Numbered from the stretch's first letter, positions 17,296 through 62,262 are shown. The stretch is DNA of 64,000 nucleotides from Schmidtea nova (GCA_044892505.1 CM097882.1:473928001-473992000), one strand, 5' to 3'. Numbers and translations are program-made. The notes: generated from the sequence alone by a model not told the origin.

Positions 17296-18317
17296 TTTTT
17301 TAATATGAGCATAAACTGGTTGCGCATAATTTTCACCTGAGGGGCTCCATTCTGAAATGTTGCAAGGGTCTACAGAAAGCACGCGACGGCTCTACATTTA
17401 AATAGTTACTTTCCTTTGTTATTTTTGACTGTTTTTTTTTCAAATAATGATTCAAACGATTCAAATTTGAAGTAGTAAGAGAAAGCATAACTTTCAAAAT
17501 AATTAATTTTTTTATTTAAATTTTCAGGAATAATTTTTGGAAATTCAAAATTTAGCGTTTGACATTTTTACATTTTTAAATGTACAAATATTTATAATTT
17601 GGATAGTTTAAATATTTTTATTTTTAAAAAACATTCATTAAAAATAACAAAATTAAGAATACATCCAATTGAAGAGATTATAACATCAGCTTCGCTTCGT
17701 ACTGAATTGAAAAAATATATTCATAATAAAAAATCTGATTTAAAAAAATTTTCAGTAAAAGTTTAGAATTCACATTCATTTACTCTATCAGAGTTGTCAA
17801 ACATTGATCACGTAATAATTTTTAATGGATCGACAATAATAATTGTTTTACATTCTCTTTCAATTTACGATTTTCAACTACTATTAAAAACTATAAAATA
17901 AGAAGAACATGCTGTGTATGTGTGAATTAATTTCAATATAAAAACCTATTTTAAAATAGATTCATTTTTTCATGTTTTACGTGTTTTTTAGTTATTTTTA
18001 ATTAAAAATATCGTGTTATAATTTTTTATTTTATTATATCTTAATTCAATTTAATAGATTTAAGTAGTAATCTTTATTTTTATTTACCCATTATAATTTT
18101 TAAAAAAAGTTTTCTTATGCTAAATTTTAGAGAATTTTTATTGACAAAAGTAGATCTTACGTAAAAATTAGTTGACAAGTCTACCTATATATTTGTTGGA
18201 TTGTTGGTGAAATATAAATTTACCAATTAATTCTCTCACTCCAATCGTGCTTTATTTTACCCACAAATTAACAATTTTCAGACAATATAAACATTTATTA
18301 ATTATCACAAATAGCTA

Positions 18318-19366
18318 TGTTCGGTTCGTATCAGTGGTTTACGACGAACACAGAAATATATATATATATATGTTTTGATTTGATTTGATTTGATTATCGG
18401 ACTCCAAACGATAATCCGCTTATATAATTATAAATAAAATATATGTTTTAGGTTGGGTGTAAAGAAAAGAAAACCAATTCTTTTTAATAAGATTTATGGC
18501 GATTTATGTATAACAATGTACAATATAATAAAATAAAATAGCTGCAAAGCAAAAGTTAGAAAATCGGTTATTCAAACCGTCCTCAGAGTTTAAGAACGAA
18601 AGCTGGACCTAAAAGGCTCAACAGCTCCGACTAAATGAAAGGACAAAAGATGAGGGCTTTCCCGGTAGTTTAATCGCGATAGTGACAACCCAGAAATGGT
18701 TGTCACTGTGACCTAATAATTTCCCTTCTAATAATTTATTATTTAACGAATTTACTGAAGGGGAAAAATAGTAATATAACTATTTCCCCGTGATCGATTT
18801 ATAGAATTAAAGCAAACTAGAAAATTTACCAGCTAATAAAGATTATTCCAATTTCGGGAAATTATCACAAATGAAATTCAAGCTAAACTTCTCGTAATAC
18901 TTCTGCCGTAAAAATTAATTTCTCCAATTCACAAATCTGTAAAACTTAGATTCTAAAATTCACTTCTGTAAAATTTATGTTCTGCCTCGACTGATTTGAC
19001 AATCAGTTTATATACAAATTATTTTCTCTCATGTAGGTCTAGACGACCACCTATTACTAACTACGTGTAGGTCGAAATTGACCTTACAAAATATTAACTT
19101 TTAAAGTAATTTATTATTACTATATATATCTTATTATTACTATTTAAATTTCTCATGTATTTATTTATTACTATATTTATTATATACTATTTAATTATTA
19201 CTATATTTATTATATGCTATTTAATTATTACTATATTTAATCTATATTTATTTATAGTAATTATTTATTTATTTTTAGTATTTTTTAATTGCTATTTCTA
19301 TTTATTTATTTACTTATAATATTTAATTACAAAAAACCCGAGATCCCTTGATCTCGAACCCTAACA
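18318..19366 (-). repeat. 3' LTR (1,049 bp)
   Basis: Matches 32195-33243 except at 18850/32727 and 19021/32898; minus-strand ends TGTTAGGG...CGAACA. Confidence 0.98.
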
Positions 19367-19368
19367 TG

Positions 19369-19378
19369 TCTTCCCCCT
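19369..19378 (-). promoter_or_regulatory. polypurine tract
   Basis: AGGGGGAAGA on the minus strand, 2 nt before the 3' LTR. Confidence 0.85.
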
Positions 19379-19680
19379 AACAAGATTTTCGTCCCGAAAA
19401 TTAAAGCGGAAAAAGACAAGAAGATGACGCAGCCAAAAATAAAAATAAAATAAAATAACAACACATGCATAAATATACATTGAATGCACTTGGTCAATAA
19501 AATAAAACAAAAATGAGTCTCATAAAACACACAATACATAAGTAATGTTAATCACAATCGATATCAAATAATAACTGTCTGTAAGCGTTAGATTGTTGAT
19601 CGCATAGCCGAAATGCTAATTGTTTGATTGATAGTTGTCATAGCTTATAGCTAGACCTTGGATTGAACGTAGCAGAAATG

Positions 19681-21837
19681 CTAGTTATCCTTTGCGAATA
19701 GGTTTTGAGCTGCTCTCTTGCGAATATGCGCTTGCTCGTTCTTGATGCGATCTTCCACTATATCTGGTCTATAACTGACCACCAATGTTTCGCGTGTTTC
19801 GACTTCCTTATATACCAAAGACGAAATCACGTATGATTTTCCGTTGGCCTCCAATACGCCATAGTAAGGGAAGTTTGAAACTGATGATTGGTGTACCGGT
19901 TTCCCGTCGTATTCTTTTATCCGAGGTACCCAATTTCTCTCTGGTCGCTGCCAAAAACTAGGGTCTTCATTGTCCAAATCCTGGGGTGTCTTTGCTGAAT
20001 TTCCCGTTCCAACGAAATCCCCTTCTCTTATAATAATAGGTTCGCCCTTAACCTCAGGAATCTGTTCCATATCGGGTGGAACGAATGCTGTTTCGATTAA
20101 ATCTTTGTCTTCCGTCGAGAGGAGATTTGGTACTTTCTTCTTGATCTTTAGATCTTGTAACCTTACAACAGGTTCTTGACTTTTCTTTGGGGGTGACTTT
20201 TCTACTGAAATCAATTTTTTAAAAGTCTTAGTAACTTTTTCCAAGAGCTTGTTCTCTTTCTTTGGTGGATTTTCTGGCACGATCTTTGTAATTGTACGGC
20301 TGTCTCCGTGTAAAGTTAAACGCATCTCTGTTTGCTCCTCACCCTCGCTTTCGCAGGTGGCGTAATCGTCTTCATCAGCTAAGGATATAGCTGGAGGGGA
20401 TAGTGATTCTTCCTCAACTATCTTTTGCAATTTGGTTGATAATGGTTGTTCCTGGGGTAAGCTCTCAATAGCTTTCCTTTTACTCGTTTCTTGTGGCTGT
20501 ATTGTATGAACCATTTTGACTTCTGATGTAATCGTCCCACTACGATTACCTGGGGTGATGTCATCTACCCAAACTTCTCTCAGTTTAAGGTAAATATTAC
20601 GTGTCGTTTCCACGTCATTTTCCGTTTTCAGATCTGAACGGTTTAGTTCTTCCTTTTCGAGAATTGACTTTGATAAATGCGCGAGTCGATAATGTCCGTT
20701 ACATTTCTTTAGTTCTCTCGCTTCCAGGCATTTTGCTGCTCCTAGTTCCCTAATGCCCAAAACTCGTTGAGGGTGTAACTGGACTGCTTCCAAGAAATCG
20801 TTGACTTGGAGACCTATTAGGATTTTCCCATCACATAATTTTCTAATACGGTCTGCGCAATCCTCTCCGTCAAATTGTCCGATGATTTCTTTTTCGGTCA
20901 TAGCATGCGGGTGCGATTGGTAATGTTTGACCTGGTTTCTGGGTGTAACCACCGTGTTTAGTATTAAATCACCACAGTAGTTTGCTATCAAAACAGCCAC
21001 CAAGGCTGGCTTTAAATAATCTCGCAAAGTTGCGTAATGCGCTGCAATAAATATTGACAATCTATCTTCTTGATTGGGGTGCAAATTCATCCGAACAAAG
21101 GATTTGAATGACTTGAGATCGTTCTCATTCACATTATAGGTCCAGGCAGGTTCATTTTTCCACAATGATTGCACTGCCTTGCTGGGTTCCAAAATCTCTA
21201 ATACCACAATAGTATTATATCCGTCACATTGGATGGAGATATTCTTTTCTCTGCCATCTCCGTTACTAATTTCTAGAGTTGATTCTGGTTGAAGTAGGAT
21301 AGGTCCTGTGGCTCCTGCCATGAAGATGGTAAAGGGTTTATTGATCGCGTGAATTAGGAGATGGTGAGTAAATGTTGATCTGTTAAATTCCGCCATGTGT
21401 TCAGTCAACCGGGTGTTCTCACGGCTGGTAATTGTGACTATGCACATTTGTCTCTTAGGCGATCCAAGAAACTTAAAATTGTTCGGGATGCCGGTGCAGT
21501 GCCCGTAATACCAATAGCGACGACCTTTCCGTGCTTCTGCGGATATCGCTTTTTCGATGTTTCGATAAATCAGTTTTTCCTTCTGTACTGTTTGCACATC
21601 GATAGTGCTATAACGCTGCTTGTATTGTGACACTTGATGCTTCATATCTGAAAGAAAAATAATTAACGTTAATATCAGATATACTGATATGCCAATATTG
21701 GCTAAAAAGAAATGCATAAATCTCGATTTACGGGATCTACTTATGCTGTAAGTTAATGCTACTCGGAGCTCAACAAGATTATAGATTTTAATATATATAT
21801 ATAAATACAAATATGCGATTTTATCTGTAATTGTCAT
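19681..21837 (-). CDS. ORF3 accessory protein (718 aa from ATG 21837, or 654 aa from ATG 21645): degenerate AlkB-like(?) region, degenerate DEDDh ISG20/REX4-like exonuclease, acidic/Lys-rich tail
   Basis: Intact long ORF inside the LTRs. PALVAVLIANYCGDLILNTVVTP...KLCDGKILIG...RLAHLSKSIL...TENDVETTRNIY aligns with REX4/ISG20 motifs. Confidence 0.75.
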   Translation of the reverse strand: MTITDKIAYLYLYIYIKIYNLVELRVALTYSISRSRKSRFMHFFLANIGISVYLILTLIIFLSDMKHQVSQYKQRYSTIDVQTVQKEKLIYRNIEKAISAEARKGRRYWYYGHCTGIPNNFKFLGSPKRQMCIVTITSRENTRLTEHMAEFNRSTFTHHLLIHAINKPFTIFMAGATGPILLQPESTLEISNGDGREKNISIQCDGYNTIVVLEILEPSKAVQSLWKNEPAWTYNVNENDLKSFKSFVRMNLHPNQEDRLSIFIAAHYATLRDYLKPALVAVLIANYCGDLILNTVVTPRNQVKHYQSHPHAMTEKEIIGQFDGEDCADRIRKLCDGKILIGLQVNDFLEAVQLHPQRVLGIRELGAAKCLEARELKKCNGHYRLAHLSKSILEKEELNRSDLKTENDVETTRNIYLKLREVWVDDITPGNRSGTITSEVKMVHTIQPQETSKRKAIESLPQEQPLSTKLQKIVEEESLSPPAISLADEDDYATCESEGEEQTEMRLTLHGDSRTITKIVPENPPKKENKLLEKVTKTFKKLISVEKSPPKKSQEPVVRLQDLKIKKKVPNLLSTEDKDLIETAFVPPDMEQIPEVKGEPIIIREGDFVGTGNSAKTPQDLDNEDPSFWQRPERNWVPRIKEYDGKPVHQSSVSNFPYYGVLEANGKSYVISSLVYKEVETRETLVVSYRPDIVEDRIKNEQAHIRKRAAQNLFAKDN

Positions 21838-22787
21838 AATCTCGTCATCATAATCCCATCAACCGACTCAATAGCCTGACTGAAGAATAATTTCATCCAA
21901 ACTCCCATTGCTATCAATGTAGTGATCATAGCTAATACTGCTGACGTAATAATCCATACCCCAACGGGTAATTTTCCCAAGTGAGTAATGGGGTTTACTT
22001 CATTAATTCCACACTGACAACTTTTAATATTGCTTTCTGTTGCTACTGTTGGTTTTACCATCTTCAATCCTTTCAATCTCTGCCATATGGCAGGATGAAT
22101 GACGTAACTCTCTTTCCGTATTAAGGATGTAACCGATTTCGTTGTCGTCGATGATTGAGGTAATTTCAAAGAGATTACTTCATAAAATACCTCATTCCAT
22201 TCATCGACTCCGAGCTTTTGTTTATTATTCATATAAGTGATATGAGCTTCCCACTCCACTGAACTGTTCCACTTGAGATTTTGTTTCTCAATATCTTCAT
22301 TTAGCCACAATTCTTGTACTATTTCCTTGTCGGAATGGATTTCTATCTTTACTCTATCCACTCCTTGTTTTGGTTGGCTGAAGGTAATCATACCTTGTTG
22401 GATATTTATCCTAACTTTCCTTTTGAAATCTGCTGTCTTCAGCTTCCATTGTGACTTTGAAAAATCTGACCATCGTCCAAACATAAAATGTTGTACAAGT
22501 ATATCTAATAAATATTCCTTTTCTGCTCGTAAGTCCTTTATGACTTTCACTCTTGTGTTTGAATCCAATGTAAAATGGAAACAACGTCGTTCACAAAACG
22601 AGAACTTGAATTTTGTATCATTTTCAGCTAATGATATTATCCTAAATTCCTGGAAAGATCTTCTGAATGCGAGATCTTGAATTTGTACCGCCGTTGGAAC
22701 AAATGTCTTTACACAGGATATAAGGCAACTTATTATTACCAAAAACGTAACTGATTTTGGCACGCCTCTTGATCGTAATGGATATCT
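21834..22787 (-). other. post-integrase type I membrane-protein module of unknown family
   Basis: RYPLRSR, then hydrophobic SVTFLVIISCLISCVKT (22704-22754), sequons NDT and NSS, and TM VGVWIITSAVLAMITTLIAMGVWMKLFF (21882-21965). Confidence 0.7.
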
Positions 22788-25700
22788 GTCTGAGACTGGT
22801 TCTGACCCTTTATCCTCTTTTTCCTTAATCGGATCTTTCTCCGTGACCGCAACTTTCTTGCATCTGTTAGCATGTACCATTATTGGTTCAGCTTTTCTAT
22901 TTGCTACTAATTGCAAGATTAAATTCGTGTCTGTGGTTCTCAAAACCTCATACGGTCCTTTGAAGTTTCTCATTAATTTTGGTGATAAGCCCTTTTTATT
23001 ATAATGGCTTTCCAACATCACCTTGTCTCCAACTAACATGCCATGTCCTTTGGCTTTCTTATCATGATAATCTTTCGATGCTTCCTGACTGAATTTTATA
23101 CTAAGACCTGCTTTTGTCCATGCTTCTTGCATTCTTTCTCTCATTTCCATGAGGTAATTTTCTTGGTCTAGATACTGTGTTGCTTTTGGGAAGAACAACA
23201 AATCTATAGGCATTTTACTTTGCCTTAAATACATGAGATAGAACGGCGTTTGTCCCGTACCCTCATGAACAGCATTTCTATATGCGAATAGGCATGATGG
23301 AATATGTATATCCCAATCCGTTTGCCCTGAATTTACGTATGATGCTAGCATATTTGCAAGCGTTCCGTTAAATCTCTCTACCAATCCGTCTGTTTGTGGA
23401 TGATACGGAGAGGTATTCAATTTTAAAATGTCGAAATAATCATTTATTCCTTTTAACAGATTACTCATGAAATCTGCTCCTCTATCTGTTAGTAGTTTTG
23501 TAGGTACTCCATACCTAAAAACGATTTGTTCTACAAAAATCCTGGCTATCGTATCTGCCTTGTGATTCGGTATCGGATAAGCCTCCGGCCATTTTGTCAG
23601 ATAATCGCAAAATACTAATATGTATTTGTTACCACTATTTGATTCTTTGAATGGCCCTAAAACATCCATTGCCGTCATTTCCATCGGTGTGGATGGTACT
23701 GGCATTGGTTTCATTGGCACATGCGGTTTCTTCCCCGTATTTCTCCTGGTGATACAGATCTTACATGACTGACACCATTCCTGTACGTCTGGTTTGATTG
23801 TCGGCCAGAAATATTTCTGCTTCAACCTTGACAATGTTTTCCTGAAAGACAAATGCCCTCCCAGTGCTCCATCATGATATTGTAACATCAAGGCTTCCCG
23901 ATATTTCTTAGGGACCATTATGACATTATCCCTTACATCCACATATTTGACTAATCCTTCTTCTAGGATAAATTTGTCTCGATTTTTCTCCCAATATTTA
24001 TTAAATTCCGTCGGTATGAACTTTGCTTCTAAAGCCTGTCTGATTTGGTTTATCTCTTCATCCGATTGTTGTGCTGCCATTAAATCCGCGAGTCTGTTTG
24101 CTTCTCTTGTAAGTGCGAAGATTGTTCCTTCTAATCTTCCTTCTTTGACATCTTCTGCTTCATCACCCTGGTCCATTCGAGAAAATGCATCTGCATTCCC
24201 ATTTTGATGTCCTTTTCGGTAATGTATTTCGATGTCGTACGGCTGCAAGATCAATGCCCATCTAACCAATTTTGATGTATCCATAGTATGCTTTGTTAAC
24301 CACTGTAATGGTCTATGATCCGTATACACAATGATCTTTCGACCCCATAAATATGTCCTGAATTGGTGTATAGCATACACAATTGCTAATGCTTCTAATT
24401 CGATAACTGCGTAATTCTTTTCGTGTGGTTTTAATCCTCTGCTAGCATACGCTATGGCATATTCGTCTCCTAGGTCATCTCTTTGACCTAACACAGCACC
24501 AATACCCCGAGTGCTGGCATCTGTCATGACCAAAAATTGTTTCTCAAAATCTGGAAACCGTAATATAGGAGGTTCCACGAGCATTCTCTTTAGCATAGCA
24601 AATGCTTCCTGTTGCTCTTTTCCCCAAACAAATTTGACATTTTTGCCCTCTAATTGTGTCAGAGGAAATGCTATTGCCGAAAAGTTCCTGATGAACTTCC
24701 TGTAATATCCCACTAAGCCCAAAAACCCTTTTATATGTTTGACTGTCTTTGGCTCTGGAAAATTCTTTGCTTTCTCAACATTTGCTGGATCTGGCTTTAC
24801 TCCATCCTTCGAGATAATGTGACCGACATAGACTACCTCTGATTCGGCCCATTTACATTTCGATGGTTTTACCTTAAGATTTGCATTAATTAACCTTTTG
24901 AATACGTCCTCTAAATGTTCTAAATGTTTTTCCAAATCTGGAGAAAATACTATGATATCATCTATGTATACCATTGCATGATGAACATCCATTAACATTA
25001 GATTCATGGCTCTTTGAAACGTTGCCGGCGCTCCTGTGAGACCAAATGGCATTACTGTATATTCGAAGTGTCCAAGGCTTGTAGAAAAAGCCGTAATTGG
25101 TATTGTCTCCTCTTTTAACTTGATTTGGTAAAATCCCTTCTGAGCATCCATCACTGAGAAATATTTTGAATTTCTCATGCGTCCGTAAATGTAATCCAAT
25201 AATGGTAATGGGTGACTATCCTTGCAAGTTGCTTCGTTTACCATTCGATAGTCGTTGCATAGTCGTACTGTTCCATCCTTTTTTGCCACTACTATCATTG
25301 GTGACTGGTATGGTGATTTACTATGCCTGATGATGTTATGTTTTAACATCAGTTTTACCTGCTTATCGACAGGTTCTTCCAAGCTAAACGGAATTCGATA
25401 CGGTCTCAGCTTTATTGGTTTAATATTGTTAAGAACAATTTCATGTTCCAACAAGTTCGTCTTTCCCAGATCATATTCGTGCTTGGCGAATACTTGATCA
25501 TATTTTCTTAACAACATGTTTACTTGAATATTCTCTCTTCGTGAAAGAGCTTTACTATTTGCCGTTGGCGCATCATAGTACTCGATGTCTGGTTCTCTAT
25601 TCTCTGCCTTCACTGTCAGGACAGATCCCCCAATCGGTAATTGATCCGACTTTGATACTCTCCCTACTCTTGTATCTGGGTACAATTTTAATGGTTTTAT

Positions 25701-25811
25701 ATCTAAATTGGCTACCCGAATTGGTATTCTGCCATTTTCAACTTTACCAACGCTATGCGTAATTGGTAGATTATATTTTGCTGAGAACCTTTCATCTGGT
25801 TCAAATACAAC
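21834..25811 (-). CDS. pol: Pol: RT - RNase H - integrase (HHCC, DDE, GPY/F) - signal peptide - ectodomain - TM; in frame with ORF1 after a TAA
   Basis: RT: DAQKGFYQI, PFGL, YIDD (24957-24968). RH: TDAS, ELEALA, TDHRPL. IN: HDGALGGH..CQSCKIC, MDVLGP, TDRGADF, VERFNGTL, FKGPY. The ORF track start at 25685 is a TTG within a frame that is open from 25811. Confidence 0.97.
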   Translation of the reverse strand, partial: VVFEPDERFSAKYNLPITHSVGKVENGRIPIRVANLDIKPLKLYPDTRVGRVSKSDQLPIGGSVLTVKAENREPDIEYYDAPTANSKALSRRENIQVNMLLRKYDQVFAKHEYDLGKTNLLEHEIVLNNIKPIKLRPYRIPFSLEEPVDKQVKLMLKHNIIRHSKSPYQSPMIVVAKKDGTVRLCNDYRMVNEATCKDSHPLPLLDYIYGRMRNSKYFSVMDAQKGFYQIKLKEETIPITAFSTSLGHFEYTVMPFGLTGAPATFQRAMNLMLMDVHHAMVYIDDIIVFSPDLEKHLEHLEDVFKRLINANLKVKPSKCKWAESEVVYVGHIISKDGVKPDPANVEKAKNFPEPKTVKHIKGFLGLVGYYRKFIRNFSAIAFPLTQLEGKNVKFVWGKEQQEAFAMLKRMLVEPPILRFPDFEKQFLVMTDASTRGIGAVLGQRDDLGDEYAIAYASRGLKPHEKNYAVIELEALAIVYAIHQFRTYLWGRKIIVYTDHRPLQWLTKHTMDTSKLVRWALILQPYDIEIHYRKGHQNGNADAFSRMDQGDEAEDVKEGRLEGTIFALTREANRLADLMAAQQSDEEINQIRQALEAKFIPTEFNKYWEKNRDKFILEEGLVKYVDVRDNVIMVPKKYREALMLQYHDGALGGHLSFRKTLSRLKQKYFWPTIKPDVQEWCQSCKICITRRNTGKKPHVPMKPMPVPSTPMEMTAMDVLGPFKESNSGNKYILVFCDYLTKWPEAYPIPNHKADTIARIFVEQIVFRYGVPTKLLTDRGADFMSNLLKGINDYFDILKLNTSPYHPQTDGLVERFNGTLANMLASYVNSGQTDWDIHIPSCLFAYRNAVHEGTGQTPFYLMYLRQSKMPIDLLFFPKATQYLDQENYLMEMRERMQEAWTKAGLSIKFSQEASKDYHDKKAKGHGMLVGDKVMLESHYNKKGLSPKLMRNFKGPYEVLRTTDTNLILQLVANRKAEPIMVHANRCKKVAVTEKDPIKEKEDKGSEPVSDRYPLRSRGVPKSVTFLVIISCLISCVKTFVPTAVQIQDLAFRRSFQEFRIISLAENDTKFKFSFCERRCFHFTLDSNTRVKVIKDLRAEKEYLLDILVQHFMFGRWSDFSKSQWKLKTADFKRKVRINIQQGMITFSQPKQGVDRVKIEIHSDKEIVQELWLNEDIEKQNLKWNSSVEWEAHITYMNNKQKLGVDEWNEVFYEVISLKLPQSSTTTKSVTSLIRKESYVIHPAIWQRLKGLKMVKPTVATESNIKSCQCGINEVNPITHLGKLPVGVWIITSAVLAMITTLIAMGVWMKLFFSQAIESVDGIMMTRL

Positions 25812-28800
25812 TTATCCTTCCCACTGTTTGCTAGTGGACACGAAACATACTGTTTCTGCTCTAGGTGGTATTATCATCGTATGGTCGATGAAAACTGTAT
25901 CATCATTATAAACTTTTCTTTTCTTACCGGTTGATCTAACTAACAATCCGGTAGCACAGTCAAATACGACTCCTTTTAATCTTCTTAAAAAATCCATTCC
26001 TAGTAGACATTCTACTGGACAAGTTCTCATGACTATAATATCATGACGAAATTCTTGGTCACATAGCTTGATGTTACAAGCTAGAGTACCGATAATATTC
26101 AATGATGTGCCTGTAGCACCTGTTAGCGAAACTCTAGAGGTTTCCATTGATTCCAATTCTTTTTGATTTAATAGCGTTGCCTCTATGATAGTGCCGTCTG
26201 CTCCTGAATCTATCACTGCATTAACTGTGTGTCTGTTTATTTTTATCTTTATCATGGGTTTCTTCTCCAAGTTCACCCCATTTGCCATCAAAATAGTAGC
26301 ATGCGTTATCCCGATGGTATTTGCTCTGAATTTCTCAGCCTCATCTTGTTCGGTATCACTCAATTTTGGATTATATTCCTTGAATTTAGCTTTTATTGCT
26401 TCTAACGACTCGATAGGATACAGTTTCCCTTCATTTTCTAACGATAATGATATGCTTTTACCTGTTTCTCGAGCATCTTTGTCGGGAATTTGTTGATGTT
26501 TAGAAATGTACATTTTGTTTCTTGGTATGGTTAAAGCATAACTTGGCTTGCCTTCTCCTGATGTCTTTTGAAACTCTGGCGATTCCCCTTTTGGCGCTGT
26601 TGGTAAGCTTCTAAGATACGGCAATTGCATATATCTTGGGCTTCTTTTCAATCTAGGCGATGTTGTATTGATTGCAAATTTCTGGTCTGCACTATCGTAT
26701 TCATCTTCTGAAATCATACTTTTGTCGAAAATCTGTTTTGTCGCTTCGTAAGGTGGTTGATAATCCCGATATTTCATTTTCCTTAATTGATGATTCGGTT
26801 TTTTATTGTAGTTTCTTTTTCGACTTCTACTTTGCCTCTGAACTGTATTAAGAGAGTCTCCATTACCTCCTCCTTCAGAATTGTTATCGTCCCGATAACT
26901 TGTATTACCCTCCATTTCGATTCCAATAATCTCGTGTTTTACCAAGCTTCTCTGTTTGATTGTCTTTATTTCTTTACGATGATGTTTAAACAATGCAAAT
27001 TCCGCACACATAGGACACAATCCTAGTATCAACTTCCAAGACCATCCACCGATTTTGAATATACTGTATGTGGAAATTAATTGTGTTATTATTAACTTTA
27101 GAATTACGAATATTGCATATATTCCTGAGCAGCCTGCCACGAAAATACCAAAATTGGTAAACCTTCCCCATATTTTCATCATCACATTTTTAGCTGCTTC
27201 TTTATAATGATCTGGACCAAATAATAAATTGTAATCTGGTCTCATTTCGCTTGCTTGGTAAATTGTTCTTATGATTTCAGTGATACCTCTTTCTCTTACT
27301 TGAGGAAATAGCAACGTCTGTCTTGCCTCCTCAATGTCTGCTGGAGTGTAAATTCCTCCTTGTGATAATTCATCGAGTGATTTAAATTCCATGTTTTCCT
27401 CGAGTTTCGTGACTTCCAATGTTTCCACCTTTCTATTAGATGGTTTTCTGTCCGGTAATGAGATCCATCTATCATTTACCTTGTATAACGGTGATATTGC
27501 TGGATTGCAAATTGAAGGTTGAGGCTTTTGTTTTTCATCCAAAAGTCTCCTCGTTACTGGCATTACAAATCGTATCTTGTTTTGATATGACACTGGTAAT
27601 TCTAGAGTACATTCGTTATACCGTGTTAATTGTACCTCTATGGGTTGACATTGATAGCTGTATATAGCTTCCCCCATAATTCTGCCAAACATTCCATCTT
27701 CTAGCAACATAGGTGTCACTAGATCCGGATTCACGATTGATATCGCTAATCGATTTCGAACTATTTCGCGATTTAGTTTGCAATCATTGAGTATTACTTC
27801 CTGATACATTTCCTGCATTTGTCCTTGCAGATCATGATATAAATAATCTATTTTATTATTTATATAGTTCGTGATTTTGATATCCTGGCTGTGAATATTC
27901 TTGGCTTTTTGGATAAATGTTTTTGACAAATATAATCCTTTATAGTTGGTCTCGTACACCACTTTTCCGCATTTTGTCTTCTTATCTTTTCTGACAAATC
28001 TGATTGCATCTTTCTTATCTTCTGATACTAATACTAGAGGTGTGATTTCCTCACTAATATCCTCTTTTTGCTGTTTGTTGATCCTTTTCAACGTCTTTTC
28101 TTTATCCCAAATTCTTTCTCTTTTGGGTAAATCTCGATACTTTGTCCCGTTCAACTTATGGAAATTAATTTTCTTTAGTAATGACAATTCGCAATGGTCT
28201 AGTATTTGATCGTATAATAATGTAATGACCCCTGTTCTGCAGCTTCCAAATTTCGCGAGGCACTGAGGGTGTGCCATTAATCTTCCTGATAATACATCGA
28301 ACGTCCCTTCGTATTCTCTTAATTCGATTGAATAGTCCTCGATATCTACGACAAAACTTACCAACTCCGATCCGCGAGTTTTCTTTCTTCCCGTACAGGT
28401 ACCATCTGATCCAATTGATCCTCCTCTTGTAATGGTTACTCCCAGTGTTTTCCCTACTTCCGCGGCGATGGTTACCTCGTTATCGATTCTTAAAGTACCT
28501 TTTCGAAAGGCATCTAGACAATCTTCTGGCAATATGTTAACTGGTCTAGGTATTAGAGTGGCTGATAGAAAAGCTGTATAGCTGTGTGAACCACAATAAT
28601 ATTCAAACGTTGCTCTTTGGACTCTACATTCTCTTATCTTAGTTCTGAAGAATTCACTTTCTTGGTAAACATAGTATTCGACCTTTTCTCCTGTTTGGAC
28701 TTTCTCTGGGTATGCCTCTTTGCACTCAATTGCATCCACGAGCGAATATATCCGAGCCAACTTTGGATCACTGCAATCAAACGCTGTCATTGTGTTTGTC

Positions 28801-31800
28801 TGTTTCATTATCCCCATCATTACTAAAAACATTAATATCATATTTGTCATATTCCCCATTCCTCCATTTCCGAGGTGGTTGTTATTCATAGCCTCTTCCA
28901 CAAATTCATATCGTGGTTTATGTTTCTCCTCTTCCCAGAAGTTATTTTCACTCATCCACGTTCCGAGATAATGCTCCGTTATCTCCGTGATCTGGTCTAT
29001 TTCTCGATTAATAAGTTTCTTCTCATTGCCTGCGCGGGCTAAGGCATCTTGAATCAACATAGATAATGCTGTCACTATTTTTCCTTTAGATAACCCATCT
29101 TGTATGAGTGTCTCTAACATACTCTGTATCTCGTTTTGAGGTACCCCTTTAGGTAATCTCCTCATCGTCTTCGCGATTGACTGTGTCACTTTATCCACTT
29201 GAATTCCTTTAATCCGAGTGATCTGCCATTCCGGCTTTAATATTCCTATGATCTGTTTGATTCTCTTCCATGTCAGAGATTTTTCTGGTATATGTACACC
29301 CTCGTCTCTCATATCAACATCCCTGGCTATTCCTGACAGGGTTTTCATCTGAACCTGTTTAATGGTTTCTTGGTTTAATTGCTCCGTGGGTGGAGGTTTC
29401 ATTTGATCTTTCCTAGGCCTTCCTCGCCTATCTTTCTTTGTCTGCCATGCTGGCCTGACAGTTTCTACCGCCTGAGAAGTTGAAGCACCCACGTTAGTTT
29501 CCTCATTATTGCGCCTGATTTCCTCTTCTCCGTGATTATCGGCATCGATATCTACATTAAGTGGTTGTGTCTCAACGTTACCAATGACCATTTCATCTGG
29601 TAATCGTAATGCTGACCATTGAGATTCAGGTGGCTCTACGGGAATGATTGCTACCGTTGTAGTTTCAAATGGTAGACATCCCACATCTACTAAATATTCA
29701 TCATCATCCACTTGCCCTCCATGAATCATAATCAAGAATATACCAGTAGTCTGCCCAGTATCTATTAAATCCTTTCTCAACGTTATCACTTTGCTAAAAC
29801 AACGATATAACCTCGTCATGGGTTCTTTTCCCGATATTCGAATGTCTAAAGTTATCATGCCTTGTCGGTGTGCTTGATGACGTATTGCTGTTCCATTTTT
29901 TCTCATTAACATTTTTATTTCTGTTTGAAAAGAACTAGTTTCTTTTACTACAGGTAGTAATATAGGAATTATACTCTCCAATGATTCTACTGGTATGCGC
30001 AATACCAACATCCAGTCTAATATTTCCTTGATTGTTTCTCCATCCCTCGGAGATTTCTGCAACTCTATCTTCAGACGTTGCTCTATTTGTTGAACTTCCT
30101 CCAACTGTGCGATTTCCATCTGTGTGAGTAGAAACACACTGTCTTGATCCACTACTGGGACCGATATTCCTGTCAGTTTCGTTGTGAGTTTCGTTACCTT
30201 TCCTGGTAATACACCATTTTGTAGTAGTGTTTCTCCAACTACTAACTTTTCTCCATATAAGTAAAAATCATATCTATTATGTTTCAATTTCATCATTGTA
30301 TCTGACAACTTGTCTGTTCGACATCTTACATTCATGTCGATGTTAAACTCCTGCTCCTGAGGAAGTTTTATGTTTAAATGCGAATCCTGAAGATCCCATT
30401 CATGTTCCATTGCTGTTCCTATCTTTCGTAGGATTTTGTGTATGTCGTTATGATACCTTGGATCATCTTCGACCTGAGATATTAACTGTAATATCTTTCC
30501 AATTTCACTATTCTTGATCTCACCTTGTGATAATTTCTCTAATTCTCTAGTCAGTCTCTGCTGATACTCATATCTGGAATCCACCAGTTTTAAACATTTT
30601 GCTAGGGTATCTGACCCTTTCTTGGCCTTTGTTTCCTTGAACAAAGCCTGGTCGAACTCGCTCAGTATGGTACTCATACTGGGTTCGTCATCATTATCAG
30701 AATTTGTTTCTGATTCTATTACCTCCTGATTCTCGCTGCTGGAATCCATGGGTTCACTATTACCTTGCTCATCTGTGTAAGCATCATGATTTTTCTCAGC
30801 TGAAATCATCAAAACTGTTCCTTGCCCAACTGTGTGAGCATCATCGCTTTCCTCAATGGGATTCATTATAACTGTTCCTCGCCCATCCATGTGAGCATGA
30901 TTTTTCTCAGCTGAAATCATAAAAACTGTCTCTTGCCCAACTGTGTGAGTCTCATTTATTTCTTCAATTGTATTCATCAAAACTGTTCCTCGCTCATCTG
31001 TGTGAGCATGATTTTTCTCAGCTGAAATCATAAAAACTGTATCATCTCGATCCATTAGCCGTGCTAATCGATTTTTCTCCTCCTGGATTTCCATTTCCAG
31101 TTGTTGCAAATACGTCAATTCTTTATCGTGATTGACCATGAACGTAGTTTTTGGCTTGCTGATATTACCACCATTGGTAGTCCTATTATTCGTATTATTA
31201 CTCTGATTTTGAGGACACGACCTCAGTATATGCCCGAATTTTCCACATCCGTGACATTTTATCTTTCCTGATGAATTAACATCATCCCTTTTAATATTAA
31301 AATTCCCATTCGTGGGGAGATTCTTAACTCTACAAACGGAAGCCACATGCCCTCTGCGTTTGCATTTATCACACTGCAAGTTCGTGACTCTACAGTTCTC
31401 AACACTATGATTATTCATACCACATTTGGTACACTGAATACCCCTACGAGTATCAGCTACCTTCTTACTGTGGCAATCTTTTGATATGTGCCCTTTCTTA
31501 TGGCAGTTAAAACATTCAATGGCTGGCTTCTCATTATTTACCATAAATGATGTAGCCTTTTCTAAGCTGCTTTCGATTACGACAGCTTTTCTTGTTAATT
31601 CCCAAAAATCATCTCCCGTGTGGAGAATCAATGCATTTCTCATTACATTTGTGAATCCAGCTAATAATTGGTCTTTAACCATAGCTTTAGTTGCATCATT
31701 CCAGGTAGTTCTGAGCCCAAATGCTCTTTCTGCTAATAACAATAATTGATAGGAAAATTCTCCTACATGCTCATTGGCATTCTGTTTTCTATGGTAAAAC

Positions 31801-32102
31801 TGTTGTCGGAAAATTCTACTTGAATCTCCCGGTAATATTCTAGCTGTTAGTGATTCTCTCATCTTTTCCCATGTAGCTGGTTTATCTGCTGCTGGTAACG
31901 CCATAATATCATTGTAGTTTTCCCTTGCCATACCCTTAAGGTAAATTGGCAGTCTTTGTATCATTATTGCATCTGGATACCCATAGGCCTTTGCCATCTG
32001 ATAATACTCTGACATAAACTCCGGAAATTCCCCTGGATCTCCGCTAAATGCCTTGACAGGTAAAGCGGGATATCTAGCAAAAACATTATTCTCTTCAGCC
32101 AT
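25812..32102 (-). CDS. gag: Gag-Env-Pro polyprotein (2,096 aa from ATG 32102)
   Basis: Uninterrupted frame: capsid (FSGDPGEF..YLKGMA..TWEKMRESL..RKQNANEHVGEF), 4 CCHC knuckles, accessory region, glycoprotein, and protease DSG...LLGMDFL. Confidence 0.95.
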   Translation of the reverse strand: MAEENNVFARYPALPVKAFSGDPGEFPEFMSEYYQMAKAYGYPDAIMIQRLPIYLKGMARENYNDIMALPAADKPATWEKMRESLTARILPGDSSRIFRQQFYHRKQNANEHVGEFSYQLLLLAERAFGLRTTWNDATKAMVKDQLLAGFTNVMRNALILHTGDDFWELTRKAVVIESSLEKATSFMVNNEKPAIECFNCHKKGHISKDCHSKKVADTRRGIQCTKCGMNNHSVENCRVTNLQCDKCKRRGHVASVCRVKNLPTNGNFNIKRDDVNSSGKIKCHGCGKFGHILRSCPQNQSNNTNNRTTNGGNISKPKTTFMVNHDKELTYLQQLEMEIQEEKNRLARLMDRDDTVFMISAEKNHAHTDERGTVLMNTIEEINETHTVGQETVFMISAEKNHAHMDGRGTVIMNPIEESDDAHTVGQGTVLMISAEKNHDAYTDEQGNSEPMDSSSENQEVIESETNSDNDDEPSMSTILSEFDQALFKETKAKKGSDTLAKCLKLVDSRYEYQQRLTRELEKLSQGEIKNSEIGKILQLISQVEDDPRYHNDIHKILRKIGTAMEHEWDLQDSHLNIKLPQEQEFNIDMNVRCRTDKLSDTMMKLKHNRYDFYLYGEKLVVGETLLQNGVLPGKVTKLTTKLTGISVPVVDQDSVFLLTQMEIAQLEEVQQIEQRLKIELQKSPRDGETIKEILDWMLVLRIPVESLESIIPILLPVVKETSSFQTEIKMLMRKNGTAIRHQAHRQGMITLDIRISGKEPMTRLYRCFSKVITLRKDLIDTGQTTGIFLIMIHGGQVDDDEYLVDVGCLPFETTTVAIIPVEPPESQWSALRLPDEMVIGNVETQPLNVDIDADNHGEEEIRRNNEETNVGASTSQAVETVRPAWQTKKDRRGRPRKDQMKPPPTEQLNQETIKQVQMKTLSGIARDVDMRDEGVHIPEKSLTWKRIKQIIGILKPEWQITRIKGIQVDKVTQSIAKTMRRLPKGVPQNEIQSMLETLIQDGLSKGKIVTALSMLIQDALARAGNEKKLINREIDQITEITEHYLGTWMSENNFWEEEKHKPRYEFVEEAMNNNHLGNGGMGNMTNMILMFLVMMGIMKQTNTMTAFDCSDPKLARIYSLVDAIECKEAYPEKVQTGEKVEYYVYQESEFFRTKIRECRVQRATFEYYCGSHSYTAFLSATLIPRPVNILPEDCLDAFRKGTLRIDNEVTIAAEVGKTLGVTITRGGSIGSDGTCTGRKKTRGSELVSFVVDIEDYSIELREYEGTFDVLSGRLMAHPQCLAKFGSCRTGVITLLYDQILDHCELSLLKKINFHKLNGTKYRDLPKRERIWDKEKTLKRINKQQKEDISEEITPLVLVSEDKKDAIRFVRKDKKTKCGKVVYETNYKGLYLSKTFIQKAKNIHSQDIKITNYINNKIDYLYHDLQGQMQEMYQEVILNDCKLNREIVRNRLAISIVNPDLVTPMLLEDGMFGRIMGEAIYSYQCQPIEVQLTRYNECTLELPVSYQNKIRFVMPVTRRLLDEKQKPQPSICNPAISPLYKVNDRWISLPDRKPSNRKVETLEVTKLEENMEFKSLDELSQGGIYTPADIEEARQTLLFPQVRERGITEIIRTIYQASEMRPDYNLLFGPDHYKEAAKNVMMKIWGRFTNFGIFVAGCSGIYAIFVILKLIITQLISTYSIFKIGGWSWKLILGLCPMCAEFALFKHHRKEIKTIKQRSLVKHEIIGIEMEGNTSYRDDNNSEGGGNGDSLNTVQRQSRSRKRNYNKKPNHQLRKMKYRDYQPPYEATKQIFDKSMISEDEYDSADQKFAINTTSPRLKRSPRYMQLPYLRSLPTAPKGESPEFQKTSGEGKPSYALTIPRNKMYISKHQQIPDKDARETGKSISLSLENEGKLYPIESLEAIKAKFKEYNPKLSDTEQDEAEKFRANTIGITHATILMANGVNLEKKPMIKIKINRHTVNAVIDSGADGTIIEATLLNQKELESMETSRVSLTGATGTSLNIIGTLACNIKLCDQEFRHDIIVMRTCPVECLLGMDFLRRLKGVVFDCATGLLVRSTGKKRKVYNDDTVFIDHTMIIPPRAETVCFVSTSKQWEG
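25956..26260 (-). other. retropepsin aspartic protease domain
   Basis: AVIDSGADGTII (catalytic D at 26208-26210), flap TGATGTSL, CLLGMDFL. Confidence 0.95.
26988..28850 (-). other. env: envelope glycoprotein domain, chuvirus/Jingchuvirales G-like (class III-like fusogen), embedded in ORF1
   Basis: Signal-like MILMFLVMMGIM, then AFDC, YYCGSHS, GSIGSDGTCTG, CKLNREI, GEAIYSYQCQP, CTLELPV, GGIYTPADIE, LLFP; TM FGIFVAGCSGIYAIFVILKLII (27087-27153). Confidence 0.85.
29640..30563 (-). other. duplicated helical + ubiquitin-like module
   Basis: QRL..EL.K...(D/E)I..(I/L).RK.GTA occurs twice, each followed by a 72-73 aa segment matching the ubiquitin-fold pattern. Confidence 0.6.
30762..31040 (-). repeat. 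in-frame 111-bp (37-aa) tandem repeat x2.5 built from 18/19-aa subunits
   Basis: TVFMISAEKNHAH...TV(L/I)MN(T/P)IEE...HTVGQ repeated. Confidence 0.9.
31215..31514 (-). other. four CX2CX4HX4C zinc knuckles (nucleocapsid)
   Basis: CFNCHKKGHISKDC, CTKCGMNNHSVENC, CDKCKRRGHVASVC, CHGCGKFGHILRSC. Confidence 0.95.
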
Positions 32103-32173
32103 GTCCTCCACAACTTTTAACTTTTTAGGAGCTATTTTGTATATATGACAATATGCCCACTGATAATAATTGT

Positions 32174-32191
32174 ATCACGTCGGGCTCACCA
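32174..32191 (-). promoter_or_regulatory. primer-binding site, tRNA-Trp type
   Basis: TGGTGAGCCCGACGTGAT, 3 nt after the 5' LTR. Its complement ATCACGTCGGGCTCACCA differs at one base from the animal tRNA-Trp 3' end as I recall it (ATCACGTCGGGGTCACCA). Confidence 0.85.
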
Positions 32192-32194
32192 AAA

Positions 32195-33243
32195 TGTTCG
32201 GTTCGTATCAGTGGTTTACGACGAACACAGAAATATATATATATATATGTTTTGATTTGATTTGATTTGATTATCGGACTCCAAACGATAATCCGCTTAT
32301 ATAATTATAAATAAAATATATGTTTTAGGTTGGGTGTAAAGAAAAGAAAACCAATTCTTTTTAATAAGATTTATGGCGATTTATGTATAACAATGTACAA
32401 TATAATAAAATAAAATAGCTGCAAAGCAAAAGTTAGAAAATCGGTTATTCAAACCGTCCTCAGAGTTTAAGAACGAAAGCTGGACCTAAAAGGCTCAACA
32501 GCTCCGACTAAATGAAAGGACAAAAGATGAGGGCTTTCCCGGTAGTTTAATCGCGATAGTGACAACCCAGAAATGGTTGTCACTGTGACCTAATAATTTC
32601 CCTTCTAATAATTTATTATTTAACGAATTTACTGAAGGGGAAAAATAGTAATATAACTATTTCCCCGTGATCGATTTATAGAATTAAAGCAAACTAGAAA
32701 ATTTACCAGCTAATAAAGATTATTCCTATTTCGGGAAATTATCACAAATGAAATTCAAGCTAAACTTCTCGTAATACTTCTGCCGTAAAAATTAATTTCT
32801 CCAATTCACAAATCTGTAAAACTTAGATTCTAAAATTCACTTCTGTAAAATTTATGTTCTGCCTCGACTGATTTGACAATCAGTTTATATACAAATTCTT
32901 TTCTCTCATGTAGGTCTAGACGACCACCTATTACTAACTACGTGTAGGTCGAAATTGACCTTACAAAATATTAACTTTTAAAGTAATTTATTATTACTAT
33001 ATATATCTTATTATTACTATTTAAATTTCTCATGTATTTATTTATTACTATATTTATTATATACTATTTAATTATTACTATATTTATTATATGCTATTTA
33101 ATTATTACTATATTTAATCTATATTTATTTATAGTAATTATTTATTTATTTTTAGTATTTTTTAATTGCTATTTCTATTTATTTATTTACTTATAATATT
33201 TAATTACAAAAAACCCGAGATCCCTTGATCTCGAACCCTAACA
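32195..33243 (-). repeat. 5' LTR (1,049 bp)
   Basis: Direct repeat of 18318-19366, adjacent to the PBS. Confidence 0.98.
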
Positions 33244-35162
33244 GCTACACAGATTGCAATGACACGACCAATTCAATATCACTACAAATTACTATACAGT
33301 TCTTATTACGACATTTCGTGAAGAATAGAACTAACGTATAATGCCTAAAATTTACGATCACTGACTGCTGACTTGGATTCGACAATTGATTAACAAATCT
33401 GATTGTTCTGTTGTTTTGATTCAGTAATGTACTAGACAGGTTGCGACTCATTTCTTACTCGATTTATTCGTGTTTTGCTATGTTTTATTTAATCTTCTCA
33501 AATTTTCCTTTGATTCCACGTTTTACAATAATAAACTCTATTTAACTCAATAAGTTTCTTTACCAGTTTCCTCTACTACAAATTTGTATTTCTCCTATCT
33601 GACTTTCTTTTTTCTAATTTTTAATTTCACTAATCTAAATTTCTAATTCATCTGCTGTGGTTTCTCTTTTTTTTATTTTGTCATTTTCTGATACTTAAGA
33701 TTATCTTTGTTTTTCTATTTCTCTGCCCCAGCATACTCCCTACTTTCTTCCTAGCTCCTGCATTATCTCTGAGAAGCTGTTGAGATATGAATTTTCCTCT
33801 TGTTTTGTTTTTAATTTTCGAATTCCCTTTTCCATTTGTTCTTGTTAATTGGCAATGAACTTTTAAATTACTTTAATTTTTCTATTATCTTCTCCTTTCT
33901 TAATTTTTACTCTCTTCTCTTCTCCGAATTCTAGAACATCACATAAGTTACTCTGTCAATTCCTCCAATGATTTTATTTATTTTTGATATTATTTAATTT
34001 TTTTTTATGTATATCAACTACAAAAACCGATGAACATTTCTGATTTTAGAAATAGAGATATTACTAAATGACGAAACGGTAGCCTGTGAAAAATTAGTCT
34101 GTCTTTCTCGTATCTCTAAATAACATAAAGCAGTGTTTTGCAACCTTTAGGCACATGAAATCCACGTGAAATTTTGATTGTGTACGTGAACCAAAATTAT
34201 AATTTAATATTTTTTAACAAATCCGGAACATAGTTACGGTAGTTTTATTAAATTTGATCTATTGCCTGAAAATATGAAAATATATATGCTAAAATGGATT
34301 TATTTACTTCTGTAAAATAATTAAAGCTTCACTCAGTATTTGATATTGGAGGACGCAGGAGATTTTTAGAGTTGATAGATATTTTGGTTTAATAATCATC
34401 ATTGTCAGAAATACAGCTTCATAAAAATATGAAGTAGAAAATGGCAAAAGTATGTCCAGAGCCATTTCTGAAAATTATTGAAATTCTGTTGAGTCAAAAT
34501 AGATCGTAAAATTTTTGGACAAGATCTTATCGTTCGGTAATTCAATTTTGAGTTCTGTTCTCAACAATATTTGTTCTTTTACGTTGACTTGGAAATGTAA
34601 ATCAGTTCTACCCCTGTTAAAATGCTTGCATAATTTTAGATCGTAACTCAGCAGTTTGTTTTGCAGAGCGGTTAACGAAATAAATTTGAGCGAAAACTAA
34701 TTGAAATGTTACGGTTTATAAACTTTTTTACATTCAATGAAAAATCATAGAAAACAAATTTAATTATTTTTATTATATTTTTACCCCAATAAAAGCAGCT
34801 GAACATATTGTTCATCATAAAATTATTTATAAAATATATTTTTTTTAATTATGCTGGCTTTCGCCTGTAGTTGTAATTTTAATGGATTAAAACCACTAAA
34901 ACTTTTTAACTTCTTTTAATATAATTTAAATCTTTTTTACAATTATACATTATGATAAAATAATTTACAATAATTCGATCAAATTATATAGAGCACAGTC
35001 AATTTAATCAAATTAAAAAGGCATCACGGGTGTGGGCCGCCAACCTGTGTTAATAAACACTGTTAATAGACGATGTTATTTTGTTTTAAAACAAATATTA
35101 GTTTTAGAAATAATTTGGGTTCTCATAAAAATATTTAAATTATTTAAATCTTAGTTACATTA

Positions 35163-35548
35163 ATGTTGGTAAACATTAATTACAAAGGGCGAGTTCCTAT
35201 GAAAATCATACGCAACATGAGATTTCCAACAGGAAAACCTCAACAAATTAAACATAAAAATGATAATCATACTTTTTCAATATATCTTTCAAAACAGGGA
35301 AATGTCGAATAATGGAATGTAAGAAACCTCTGGAAAGCATACTTTATAATATTAAAGATGTTTATCTTCAATCATGTACAATCACTATTGATATCAAACA
35401 AAGAATTAAATTGTATTATTTGTCAAAGAAAACAGAATGTGTATATGAACCAGAAATATTCCCTGCATTGAGACTTGAATCTTATAAACCATTGTGTGTA
35501 AATATATTTACTAGCGGGAAAATAGTTGTTCTCGGATTAAAAACTTAA
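35163..35548 (+). pseudogene. compact intronless TBP-fold gene with one frameshift near 35284
   Basis: Two TBP-like repeats: ...FKTGKCRIMECKK and YEPEIFPALRL...VNIFTSGKIVVLGLK. Confidence 0.65.
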
Positions 35549-36077: not shown

Positions 36078-36667
36078 TCATAACAGGTGGATGAAATTTC
36101 CTTCGGAAGGAAAGATTGCGTCTAACAGTTCTGCTTCTGACAATTTTGTAAATTCATCCACCTGACCTTGTAGCCTTTGAGCGAAGAGTTTCCTCTGCCT
36201 TCTTCGCTTCTGGCCAATTCGTTTGCGTTTTTGGTGCGTGCTGAGTGAGGGAGCTTTTACAATAACTGGTTGAGGGTCCCTTTCGATCGTTTCGGTTAGG
36301 CCTTCAACATCCGTGCCGATTGAGATTGTCGAGGTTTTCTCGGTGATCCACCCTTGGTAGGTCACCGGCCGGATTTGTGCTTTCAGCTCTCGCTCTATGT
36401 ATGAAGCCGTCACTGAGTGGAGGCATTACGTAACTTGATCTTGGTTGCCTCCCACTCCATCCGGTAGTCGTCTCCCGTCCGCTGAGCCCACTTGGTTTTA
36501 CTTAGCTGATCTTTCATCTGCGCAGGAGCAAACCAACTCTTGCGCAGATAAGCTATTTGTGCCTCCGCTTTGACCAATTGTTCCTTTACTTGAGCCAATT
36601 CCTTGTCCTGGGCTCTTCGAATTCTCCTTAGTTTATCTATTTCTCTTTGTAACGACTCTGAACTCAT
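36078..36667 (-). CDS. two compact overlapping ORFs of unknown function (36410-36667 coiled-coil-like; 36078-36413 with basic cluster)
   Basis: GC-richer than the flanks, 4-nt stop/start overlap (GTGA), KRKRIGQKRRRQRK. Confidence 0.4.
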
Positions 36668-41720: not shown

Positions 41721-42017
41721 ACGTCTTGTGAAGAGACTTTCGTCGATTTCTGTTACCAATTAAAACTCTCAAATCATTGCGTGAGGGTGTATATGTCGTT
41801 CAATTTAAGTTAAATGCTTAATCAGTTAACAGTTTACTGCAAGTGCTGACTGTTTTGAGCGTCGCTTAAATAAGTGTAATATCCACCAGTCAATTCTTAT
41901 TTGCATTAGATTAACTCATACACCTGTTTATTTGTTTTATATCGAGCATTTTTTTACTTTTTTTAGTGAAAAATATACGATTTTAGTTCATCTTATATTT
42001 AAATAATTAGTCAGATA

Positions 42018-43290: not shown

Positions 43291-43794
43291 TATGTGATTA
43301 AATTAAACATTGTATATTTTTAAATTTTAAATTTATTTTCACAAAACTTGAGGTTGTATGAGGTACACTGCAAGCAGTTAACTATCGTTCAACTGAAATG
43401 AAAGAGTAAAATAGTGGCTAGTCCATCAAAGAAATACAAATTTTAGAGTCTAAAGTGATATCTAAATTTTTTTTTATTTATTACAATTCATAAATAATGC
43501 ATAATTAGTTATCAGCATTTGTCCAGCATTGGTATGTCTGACTGTTATAAACCAGGATGTTTTATTTTTAACTTAGATTGAGAAGTGTAGACTCAATAGA
43601 GAGCGTAAAGCAATATTGCAGAAAAAGCAAGCAATATTTTCAATTTTAAAGAGACCAATTCGCAAATAAAATCATTTTTTTAATTATTAAAATTACAATT
43701 AAATTTATTTAAAATAATCCATATTAAACGTATTTTGATAACGATCCATAACTTGATACACCAACTGTCTGTAATTAAGGGCAACAAATACATA

Positions 43795-62118: not shown

Positions 62119-62262
62119 TGAGTCATCGCAGAACAAAGGAAATGACGTCATCGATGAGTCATCCATGACCCCCTCCCCCCGCCCGATGACTCACTTTTTT
62201 CTTTGTTATGACTCATCAATGACTCATCACATGACTCATCGCATGACTCATCGCATGACTCA
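62119..62262. promoter_or_regulatory. cluster of 8 AP-1/GCN4-type TGA(C/G)TCA sites plus one CRE (TGACGTCA)
   Basis: Heptamers at 62119, 62155, 62187, 62209, 62220, 62232, 62244 and 62256; CRE at 62143. Confidence 0.6.

Follow-up and report, generated by a model that had tools for sequence, protein, structure and literature searches.

A predicted fibronectin type III membrane cassette behind the integrase of a gag-env-pol Ty3/gypsy element from Schmidtea nova

What does a retroelement encode in the canonical env slot behind its integrase when a fusion glycoprotein already sits between its gag and pol genes? The question is raised by a 64,000-nt stretch of Schmidtea nova DNA (hereafter the window, to whose positions all coordinates refer), which holds a 14,926-bp Ty3/gypsy long terminal repeat (LTR) element on the minus strand (18318-33243). 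Its 1325-aa Pol frame does not end with the integrase: the last 317 aa (aa 1009-1325; 22787-21834, minus) follow across the junction with no stop and no frameshift, and are laid out as a membrane protein, which we term the cassette. An earlier reading made without database searches (the sequence-only reading) had seen here a second type I membrane protein, unrelated to the gB-type envelope protein (Env) upstream, and had its coordinates and features right. Our analysis bears this out and adds a predicted fibronectin type III (FN3) fold, a PDZ-binding motif and family-wide conservation. For this gag-env-pol element the cassette would be an accessory surface protein of type I topology, apparently built like a small cell-adhesion molecule.

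Layout and predicted fold of the cassette

Reading along the minus strand, the cassette begins with a basic motif at the integrase end (22767-22787), which is common to most of the clade described below and would lie on the cytosolic side, followed by an internal signal-peptide-like segment (22704-22754, about aa 1020-1038) with a basic n-region (preceding net charge +4) and a hydrophobic core (best 11-mer Kyte-Doolittle value 3.03). Two predicted FN3-type domains come next, domain 1 at 22431-22694 (about aa 1040-1127) and domain 2 at 22158-22427 (about aa 1129-1218), both assigned from AlphaFold, VIA and Foldseek results and each bearing one sequon. They are succeeded by a Ser/Thr-rich stalk (21966-22157; one 25-aa segment has 40% Ser/Thr), a transmembrane (TM) helix (21897-21965, about aa 1283-1305; best 19-mer hydropathy 2.17) and a cytoplasmic tail of ~20 aa (21834-21896; 15-24 aa by the chosen helix end), which closes with a class I PDZ-binding motif and the stop codon. 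This topology was called from hydropathy, charge and conservation. Among 5000 shuffles of the 317 aa, a signal segment as good as the observed one arose in 57, a comparably good TM in 66 and both together in none, consistent with a type I layout of one signal segment and one C-terminal TM.

The signal-like segment of the sequence-only reading was recovered in this way, and several of its other details could be sharpened. The TM that it set at 21882-21965 is present and does start at 21965, but its 28 aa are a little long, and the 15-aa tail falls within the range given above. Of the roughly 250 aa described as beta-rich, the description holds for about 185 of the ~246 ectodomain residues. The two sequons (NDT and NSS, at aa 1064 and 1182) do exist, but their number is what chance would give (shuffle mean 1.55; probability of at least two, 0.48). 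No second copy of the cassette was found within the window.

Searched alone, the 317 aa found no homologue in protein searches (0 of 950 candidates; 0 among 1.84 billion representatives) and no Pfam or NCBIfam family, and a profile search against the Protein Data Bank (PDB) gave a best E of 0.28. An AlphaFold model built from an eight-row alignment (pLDDT 75.5, pTM 0.59) places 14 strands in two sandwiches, each domain being a seven-strand beta-sandwich of about 90 aa that superposes on FN3. Foldseek against the PDB returned 422 matches at E<=1e-3, the best (1.8e-7) to fibronectin 9-10 and the next to Tie2, tenascin, DCC, NCAM and CD45 at 9-16% identity; the matches listed are matrix, adhesion and receptor proteins with FN3 domains. 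A likeness to Methyltransf_FA-type motifs that the sequence-only reading had floated found no counterpart there, and Pfam gave 0 families at E<=1 and at E<=10. With VIA-align, domain 1 superposed on an FN3 monobody with Z 8.9 (root mean square deviation (rmsd) 2.9, 82 residues aligned), and each domain reached Z 8-9, at which FN3 proteins tied with bacterial Ig-like domains. In a viral fold library, FN3-containing or phage tail proteins make up many of the named top rows for this model, a carp herpesvirus and a lymphocystis virus protein being among them. The ectodomain is thus predicted to be two tandem FN3-type folds. We claim the fold and not family membership, because no member of the group passes the curated Pfam fn3 cut-off: the window protein has no match, and its relatives reach E 0.013-0.7.

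A repeat profile points the same way. Built from 20 repeats of the relatives described below, it scored the window tail at 9.7 bits, in two places, a value equalled by none of 1000 shuffles (best 8.9); its best score on 109 outgroup Pols was 1.7 bits. When each group was left out in turn, eight of the ten held-out proteins beat at least 199 of 200 shuffles. MAFFT aligns the two domains of the window with repeats 2 and 3 of relatives P0007 and P0006, and no sequence similarity was seen between the two domains themselves (E 6.1). Atlas feature neighbours of the window protein and of P0007 (0.86-0.90) are FN3 plus TM proteins, which we take as leads only.

Several observations pull against the fold assignment. 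The VIA scores of Z 8-9 lie near the level common among beta-sandwiches, and a bacterial Ig-like DUF3244 protein led the list. The folding alignment was cut by hand, its eight rows having been chosen after several subsets were tried; whole-protein alignments, which mis-registered the FN3 repeats, were left out of it. A model from the single sequence was poor (pLDDT 46) and had no match at E<=1e-3 in the viral fold library; its domain 2 did superpose on fibronectin EDB (Z 7.9, rmsd 2.0, 80 aligned), a level that may mean the common arrangement only. The profile score is modest beside the best shuffle, P0004 and P0010 failed to beat their shuffles when held out, and the repeats were selected by a motif present in the window as well, which makes the profile test lean in favour.

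Relatives and the C-terminal motif

Relatives invisible to the cassette alone came through the integrase. A search with the integrase region yielded 2049 candidates and from these 641 proteins, of which the best 120 were examined as a Pol set: 11 close relatives at 52-60% integrase identity, and 109 other Pols (the outgroup) at 44% or less. In a tree of 48 of the 121 sequences (the window together with the 44 that ranked best in BLAST and three chosen extras), the window and the 11 relatives were joined at 100/100. A signal-like segment, an ectodomain and a TM follow the integrase in 10 of these 11, and nine carry one to three FN3-type repeats of one type. Among the other 109 Pols a long tail with a TM was seen in only two, P0053 and P0060, both placed elsewhere in the tree; both bear a chromodomain and carry about 900 additional aa that close with the TM, and they may be pol-env fusions. 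The post-integrase membrane cassette is a family trait of this clade.

The clade is not uniform, and some members fit the picture less well. P0014 has a Cys-rich ectodomain instead of FN3 repeats, and P0008, as a called protein, lacks the cassette and has only two protease-like domains behind its integrase. P0012 carries a second signal-FN3-TM unit upstream of the protease, that is, in the pre-protease slot. No relative's protein gave a gB-type Env match, these being Pol-frame proteins for which an env may lie further upstream. Other departures concern details: P0006 and P0007 have signal segments of weak hydrophobicity, and in P0004 the TM lies past an in-frame stop on its contig, L001. Protease-like domains are inserted between integrase and signal in P0009 and P0010, with ankyrin repeats as well in P0010; P0011 has a C2H2 zinc finger and a second protease-like domain in the pre-protease slot, a region that resembles the post-integrase region of P0008 (E 1e-20). 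Across P0008-P0012, protease-like domains, the C2H2 finger, ankyrin repeats and the second FN3-TM unit are seen to shift between the pre-protease and post-integrase slots.

A scan of genome contigs gave 63 pattern matches that reduced to two loci, one of them useful. This locus, L001 (1-4655), is filed under a bacterial genome bin and encodes a clade Pol with two in-frame stops and a three-repeat cassette, beginning inside the protease; it is probably eukaryotic DNA in a bacterial bin.

The end of the protein is shared as well. A C-terminal [ST]-x-[VIL], the class I PDZ-binding motif, closes eight of the ten cassette proteins whose C-terminus is complete, that of the window among them, compared with 2 of the 109 other Pols (Fisher p 2.5e-9); the C-termini of the relatives were taken from called proteins, the stop codons themselves lying outside the data. 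With sister pairs collapsed, five of seven lineages, which are not fully independent, carry it, against a chance rate of 0.04. Two proteins, P0005 and P0014, have no class I motif and so count against a uniform PDZ-binding end. At its free C-terminus the window protein has the sequence of a putative class I PDZ ligand. The kept motif implies a cytosolic C-terminus. The tail of rabies G binds the PDZ domain of MAST2 (PMC10419289), which sets a precedent for such binding by a viral glycoprotein.

Around these fixed points the sequence changes fast. In sister pairs whose integrases are 86% identical, the post-integrase tails are 39% and 44% identical, and across lineages they fall to about 22-26%, yet architecture and C-terminal motif are kept. 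The cytoplasmic tails have little common sequence and vary in length. Layout and terminus that are kept while the sequence turns over are as expected for a surface protein under host pressure.

The host element and its surroundings

The element that carries the cassette shows the PR-RT-RNase H-IN order of Ty3/gypsy (Metaviridae) elements and is complete at its ends. Its 1049-bp LTRs (5' LTR 32195-33243, 3' LTR 18318-19366, both minus) differ at only two positions, a polypurine tract (about 19367-19378, minus) lies just inside the 3' LTR, and a 4-bp target-site duplication (18314-18317 and 33244-33247) flanks the whole. A tRNA-Trp-like primer-binding site (32174-32191, minus) has one mismatch to a tRNA-Trp 3' 12-mer in supplement 1 of PMC13524379. 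Because the LTRs are nearly identical and the target-site duplication, polypurine tract and primer site are in place, the insertion is recent.

Three long open reading frames (ORFs) occupy the element. ORF1 (25812-32174, minus; 2120 aa) encodes Gag with zinc knuckles, ~750 aa without assignment, Env and an aspartyl protease. The Env is a gB-type (Monjiviricetes-like) fusion glycoprotein (26958-28850, minus; PF24664, E 2.5e-90), its match covering ORF1 aa ~1130-1739 between the zinc knuckles and the protease, and by hydropathy it has an internal signal segment and two C-terminal hydrophobic segments. The ~750 aa without assignment, which separate the Gag zinc knuckles from the Env signal (31100-28860, minus), gave no Pfam or NCBIfam family match; a three-copy repeat is seen at 30728-31006 (minus) within this region. 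ORF2 holds reverse transcriptase (RT), RNase H and integrase with an SH3-like C-terminal domain (22788-25811, minus; Pfam), in the same frame as the cassette. A gB-type fusion glycoprotein between gag and pol, and RT and integrase in one continuous ORF, are features of GAG-ENV-POL errantiviruses of the HSV/gB type, but here an in-frame stop (25812-25814, minus) separates the protease from RT and splits ORF1 from ORF2, which share a frame. The window copy is probably broken at this codon, because five relatives (P0005, P0011, P0012, P0013 and L001) are open there; readthrough is the alternative.

Downstream lies ORF3 (19681-21858, minus; 725 aa stop to stop), which shares 25 nt with the end of ORF2. 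GC content is 28% in the first 211 nt of ORF3 and 42% in the remainder, and these 211 nt end at an acceptor-like site (21648), among the five best-scoring of the internal region and two bases before an ATG at 21645; ORF3 is therefore probably made by splicing and starts at that ATG. The ORF2 stop overlaps an in-frame ORF3 ATG (21835-21837, minus), an alternative start that would add a hydrophobic segment at ORF3 aa 51-69. Although ORF3 has no Pfam match, its aa 286-432 (21003-20563, minus) match the ISG20L2 exonuclease (E 3.9e-4 and 1.1e-4) in an alignment without the first catalytic motif, and we regard it as a putative DEDD-exonuclease homologue, claiming no activity. The domain is flanked by a beta-rich N-terminal part and an acidic C-terminal stretch of 290 aa, both without assignment.

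Elements of this plan are known. GAG-ENV-POL elements with a gB-type Env occur in nematodes, bryozoans and flatworms (Chary and Hayashi, eLife, PMC13524379), and according to the accessible text of that paper they share with the window element the Ty3/gypsy Pol, the gB-type env between gag and pol, the LTRs and a tRNA primer site. They differ in what follows: its accessible main text has no mention of fibronectin, FN3, immunoglobulin, PDZ, accessory or exonuclease and discusses the chromodomain as the only post-integrase domain, and in the accessible parts of its seven supplements fibronectin or FN3 occurs nowhere, while a control word was found. Bdelloid rotifer LTR retrotransposons, as described in the accessible text of PMC5408684, carry captured ORF3s after pol, some of them for small TM proteins and others for DEDDy exonucleases, and so resemble the window element in their extra post-pol cargo and its DEDD-like ORF3. 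The bdelloid ORF3s are separate, as a rule of one type per family, and fibronectin goes unmentioned in that text, whereas the window element has an FN3-type membrane protein fused to integrase beside a fusogen and a DEDD-like ORF. The Tor elements of Oikopleura are likewise Ty3/gypsy elements with membrane glycoproteins after pol, but their Env is a separate ORF with fusion-protein features, and the accessible text of PMC4402516 leaves fibronectin unmentioned. In the literature searched, from which subscription journals were mostly absent and to which access was partial, no description was found of an FN3 membrane protein fused to a retrotransposon integrase; so far as searched, the cassette is undescribed, and its novelty is provisional.

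The rest of the window holds other repeats and fragments. At 42007-43301 a transposon that we take to be mariner-like is bounded by 43-nt terminal inverted repeats; its transposase is broken. Decayed fragments of another gypsy pol lie at 50957-52057 (minus), a GC-richer stretch with short fragmented ORFs at 36078-37215 (minus), and tandem repeat arrays of 120 bp and 30 bp at 62259-63640 and 63762-63996. Fragments at 55993-56675 and 57100-59405 resemble a piggyBac transposase and a Maverick/Polinton-type DNA polymerase, and one at 35267-35548 a TATA-binding protein, all three labels being tentative.

Proposed role and competing explanations

We propose that the cassette is translated as the C-terminal part of the Pol polyprotein. 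The internal signal would direct the FN3 domains into the lumen of the endoplasmic reticulum (ER), where signal peptidase would free them, and the TM would return the tail to the cytosol; integrase would stay on the signal anchor until a protease releases it. The polyprotein would thus thread the ER membrane twice, at Env and at the cassette, each signal-TM pair bringing the chain back so that the enzymes stay cytosolic; for this to work, only one of the two C-terminal hydrophobic segments of Env can cross. No Met lies within 25 aa of the signal in the window, P0010, P0012, P0013 and P0014 (in the window the nearest in-frame Met is 42 aa upstream of it, with none within 41 aa), and P0006 has none in its first 60 tail residues, which favours signal-peptidase release over a separate start. 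Five relatives, P0007 among them, do have a Met near the signal, which speaks against this route, and moderate acceptor-like sites lie 430-470 nt upstream, so that a spliced message for the cassette may exist. Release by furin was considered and rejected: the 317 aa contain no R-x-[KR]-R, and the basic motif lies on the cytosolic side.

At the cell surface, PDZ scaffolds would hold the protein at a polarised surface or cell junction, and its FN3 domains would bind a partner on a neighbouring cell, giving attachment or contact-site targeting, while the gB-type Env would supply fusion. Animal FN3 single-pass proteins (FNDC5, the FN3 pairs of NCAM, DCC and neogenin, CD45, Tie2 and cytokine receptors) have the same succession of signal, tandem FN3, stalk, TM and short tail, and PDZ-binding ends are common among them; the cassette differs from them in its 9-16% identity, in the missing Pfam fn3 match and in being part of a retroelement polyprotein. 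Distinct proteins for attachment and for fusion are familiar from herpesviruses (gD or gH/gL with gB) and paramyxoviruses (HN with F). The division of labour proposed here with a gB-class fusogen is comparable in how it would work, with no homology claimed. That signal peptidase cuts the cassette out of the polyprotein, and that it then serves the fusogen as a PDZ-anchored partner in adhesion or attachment, is the explanation that we favour, though at about even odds. To be set against it are the stop upstream of RT in an otherwise open and very young element, the fact that FN3 folds also serve cytokine receptors and spacers, and the lack of a gB-type Env match in any relative's protein.

Different functions could be read from the same features. 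Receptor binding or immune modulation, both raised by the sequence-only reading, would fit the predicted FN3 fold, and the cassette could act purely as a host modulator that plays no part in attachment: it might be a decoy that mimics a cytokine or immune receptor of the FN3 type, compete for PDZ domains, or exclude superinfection of the producing cell. Architecture and fast divergence suit this equally; the Atlas and fold neighbours include IL-11R, IL-13R, gp130, CD45 and Tie2, and other accessory cargo is at hand in the DEDD-like ORF3 here and the ankyrin repeats of P0010. We nonetheless hold it to be possible but rather unlikely, since identities of 9-16% amount to no specific receptor homology, the window tail has neither YxxPhi nor PPxY (only 2 of 10 tails have one), and fusion to Pol couples synthesis to particle production. 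It is also conceivable, and to our minds improbable, that the FN3 protein was the clade's own spreading device, effecting contact-mediated transfer without a classical fusogen, and that the gB-type Env of the window element was added later. The missing Env matches among the relatives and the pre-protease cargo of P0012 and P0011 would agree with this, but the data are Pol-frame proteins, upstream of which an env may sit, L001 starts inside the protease, and we know of no fusion activity of FN3 domains.

Two further explanations fit poorly. The sequence-only reading had entertained a relic of an older env, for which the post-integrase position and the Env-like pairing of signal and TM could be adduced. 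The predicted fold, however, is tandem FN3; there is no Pfam family and no furin site, the PDB rows listed in the fold search are FN3 and other beta-sandwiches with no fusogen among them, and a weak match of the poor single-sequence model to a fish retrovirus Env (E 0.09) is not among the 50 rows listed for the better model. Architecture and C-terminal motif are moreover kept across the diverged lineages, and we judge such a relic highly improbable. Nearly as hard to credit is a passenger, a recently acquired host gene for an FN3 membrane protein that serves no function in the element, despite the frequency of FN3-TM-PDZ proteins in animals and the varied ORFs that LTR elements capture (PMC5408684): no host homologue appeared in the two protein searches, the cassette stands in frame with one to three repeats across a clade whose integrases are 52-60% identical, and its base composition is like that of the rest of the element (36% GC, 36% A).

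Returning to the cassette as an adhesion partner of the fusogen, we put forward more tentatively a wider picture, in which the clade would have evolved, as the C-terminal part of Pol, an adhesion molecule of its own that PDZ scaffolds would keep at cell junctions and that would dock onto neighbouring, perhaps germ-line, cells; together with the gB-type fusogen it would give two-component entry here, and it would possibly be the sole surface protein in some relatives. More generally, Pol can end in a slot for modular cargo, such as FN3 repeats, a Cys-rich ectodomain, extra protease-like domains or ankyrin repeats, and such post-integrase cargo is missed by sequence searches and by surveys centred on env. 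The choice of target cells by gB-type errantiviruses is at issue here: the gB-class fusogens of herpesviruses need partner proteins, yet these elements have been described with Env alone. A conserved, fast-evolving FN3-type surface protein with a predicted PDZ-binding tail is a concrete candidate for attachment or junction targeting in these elements.

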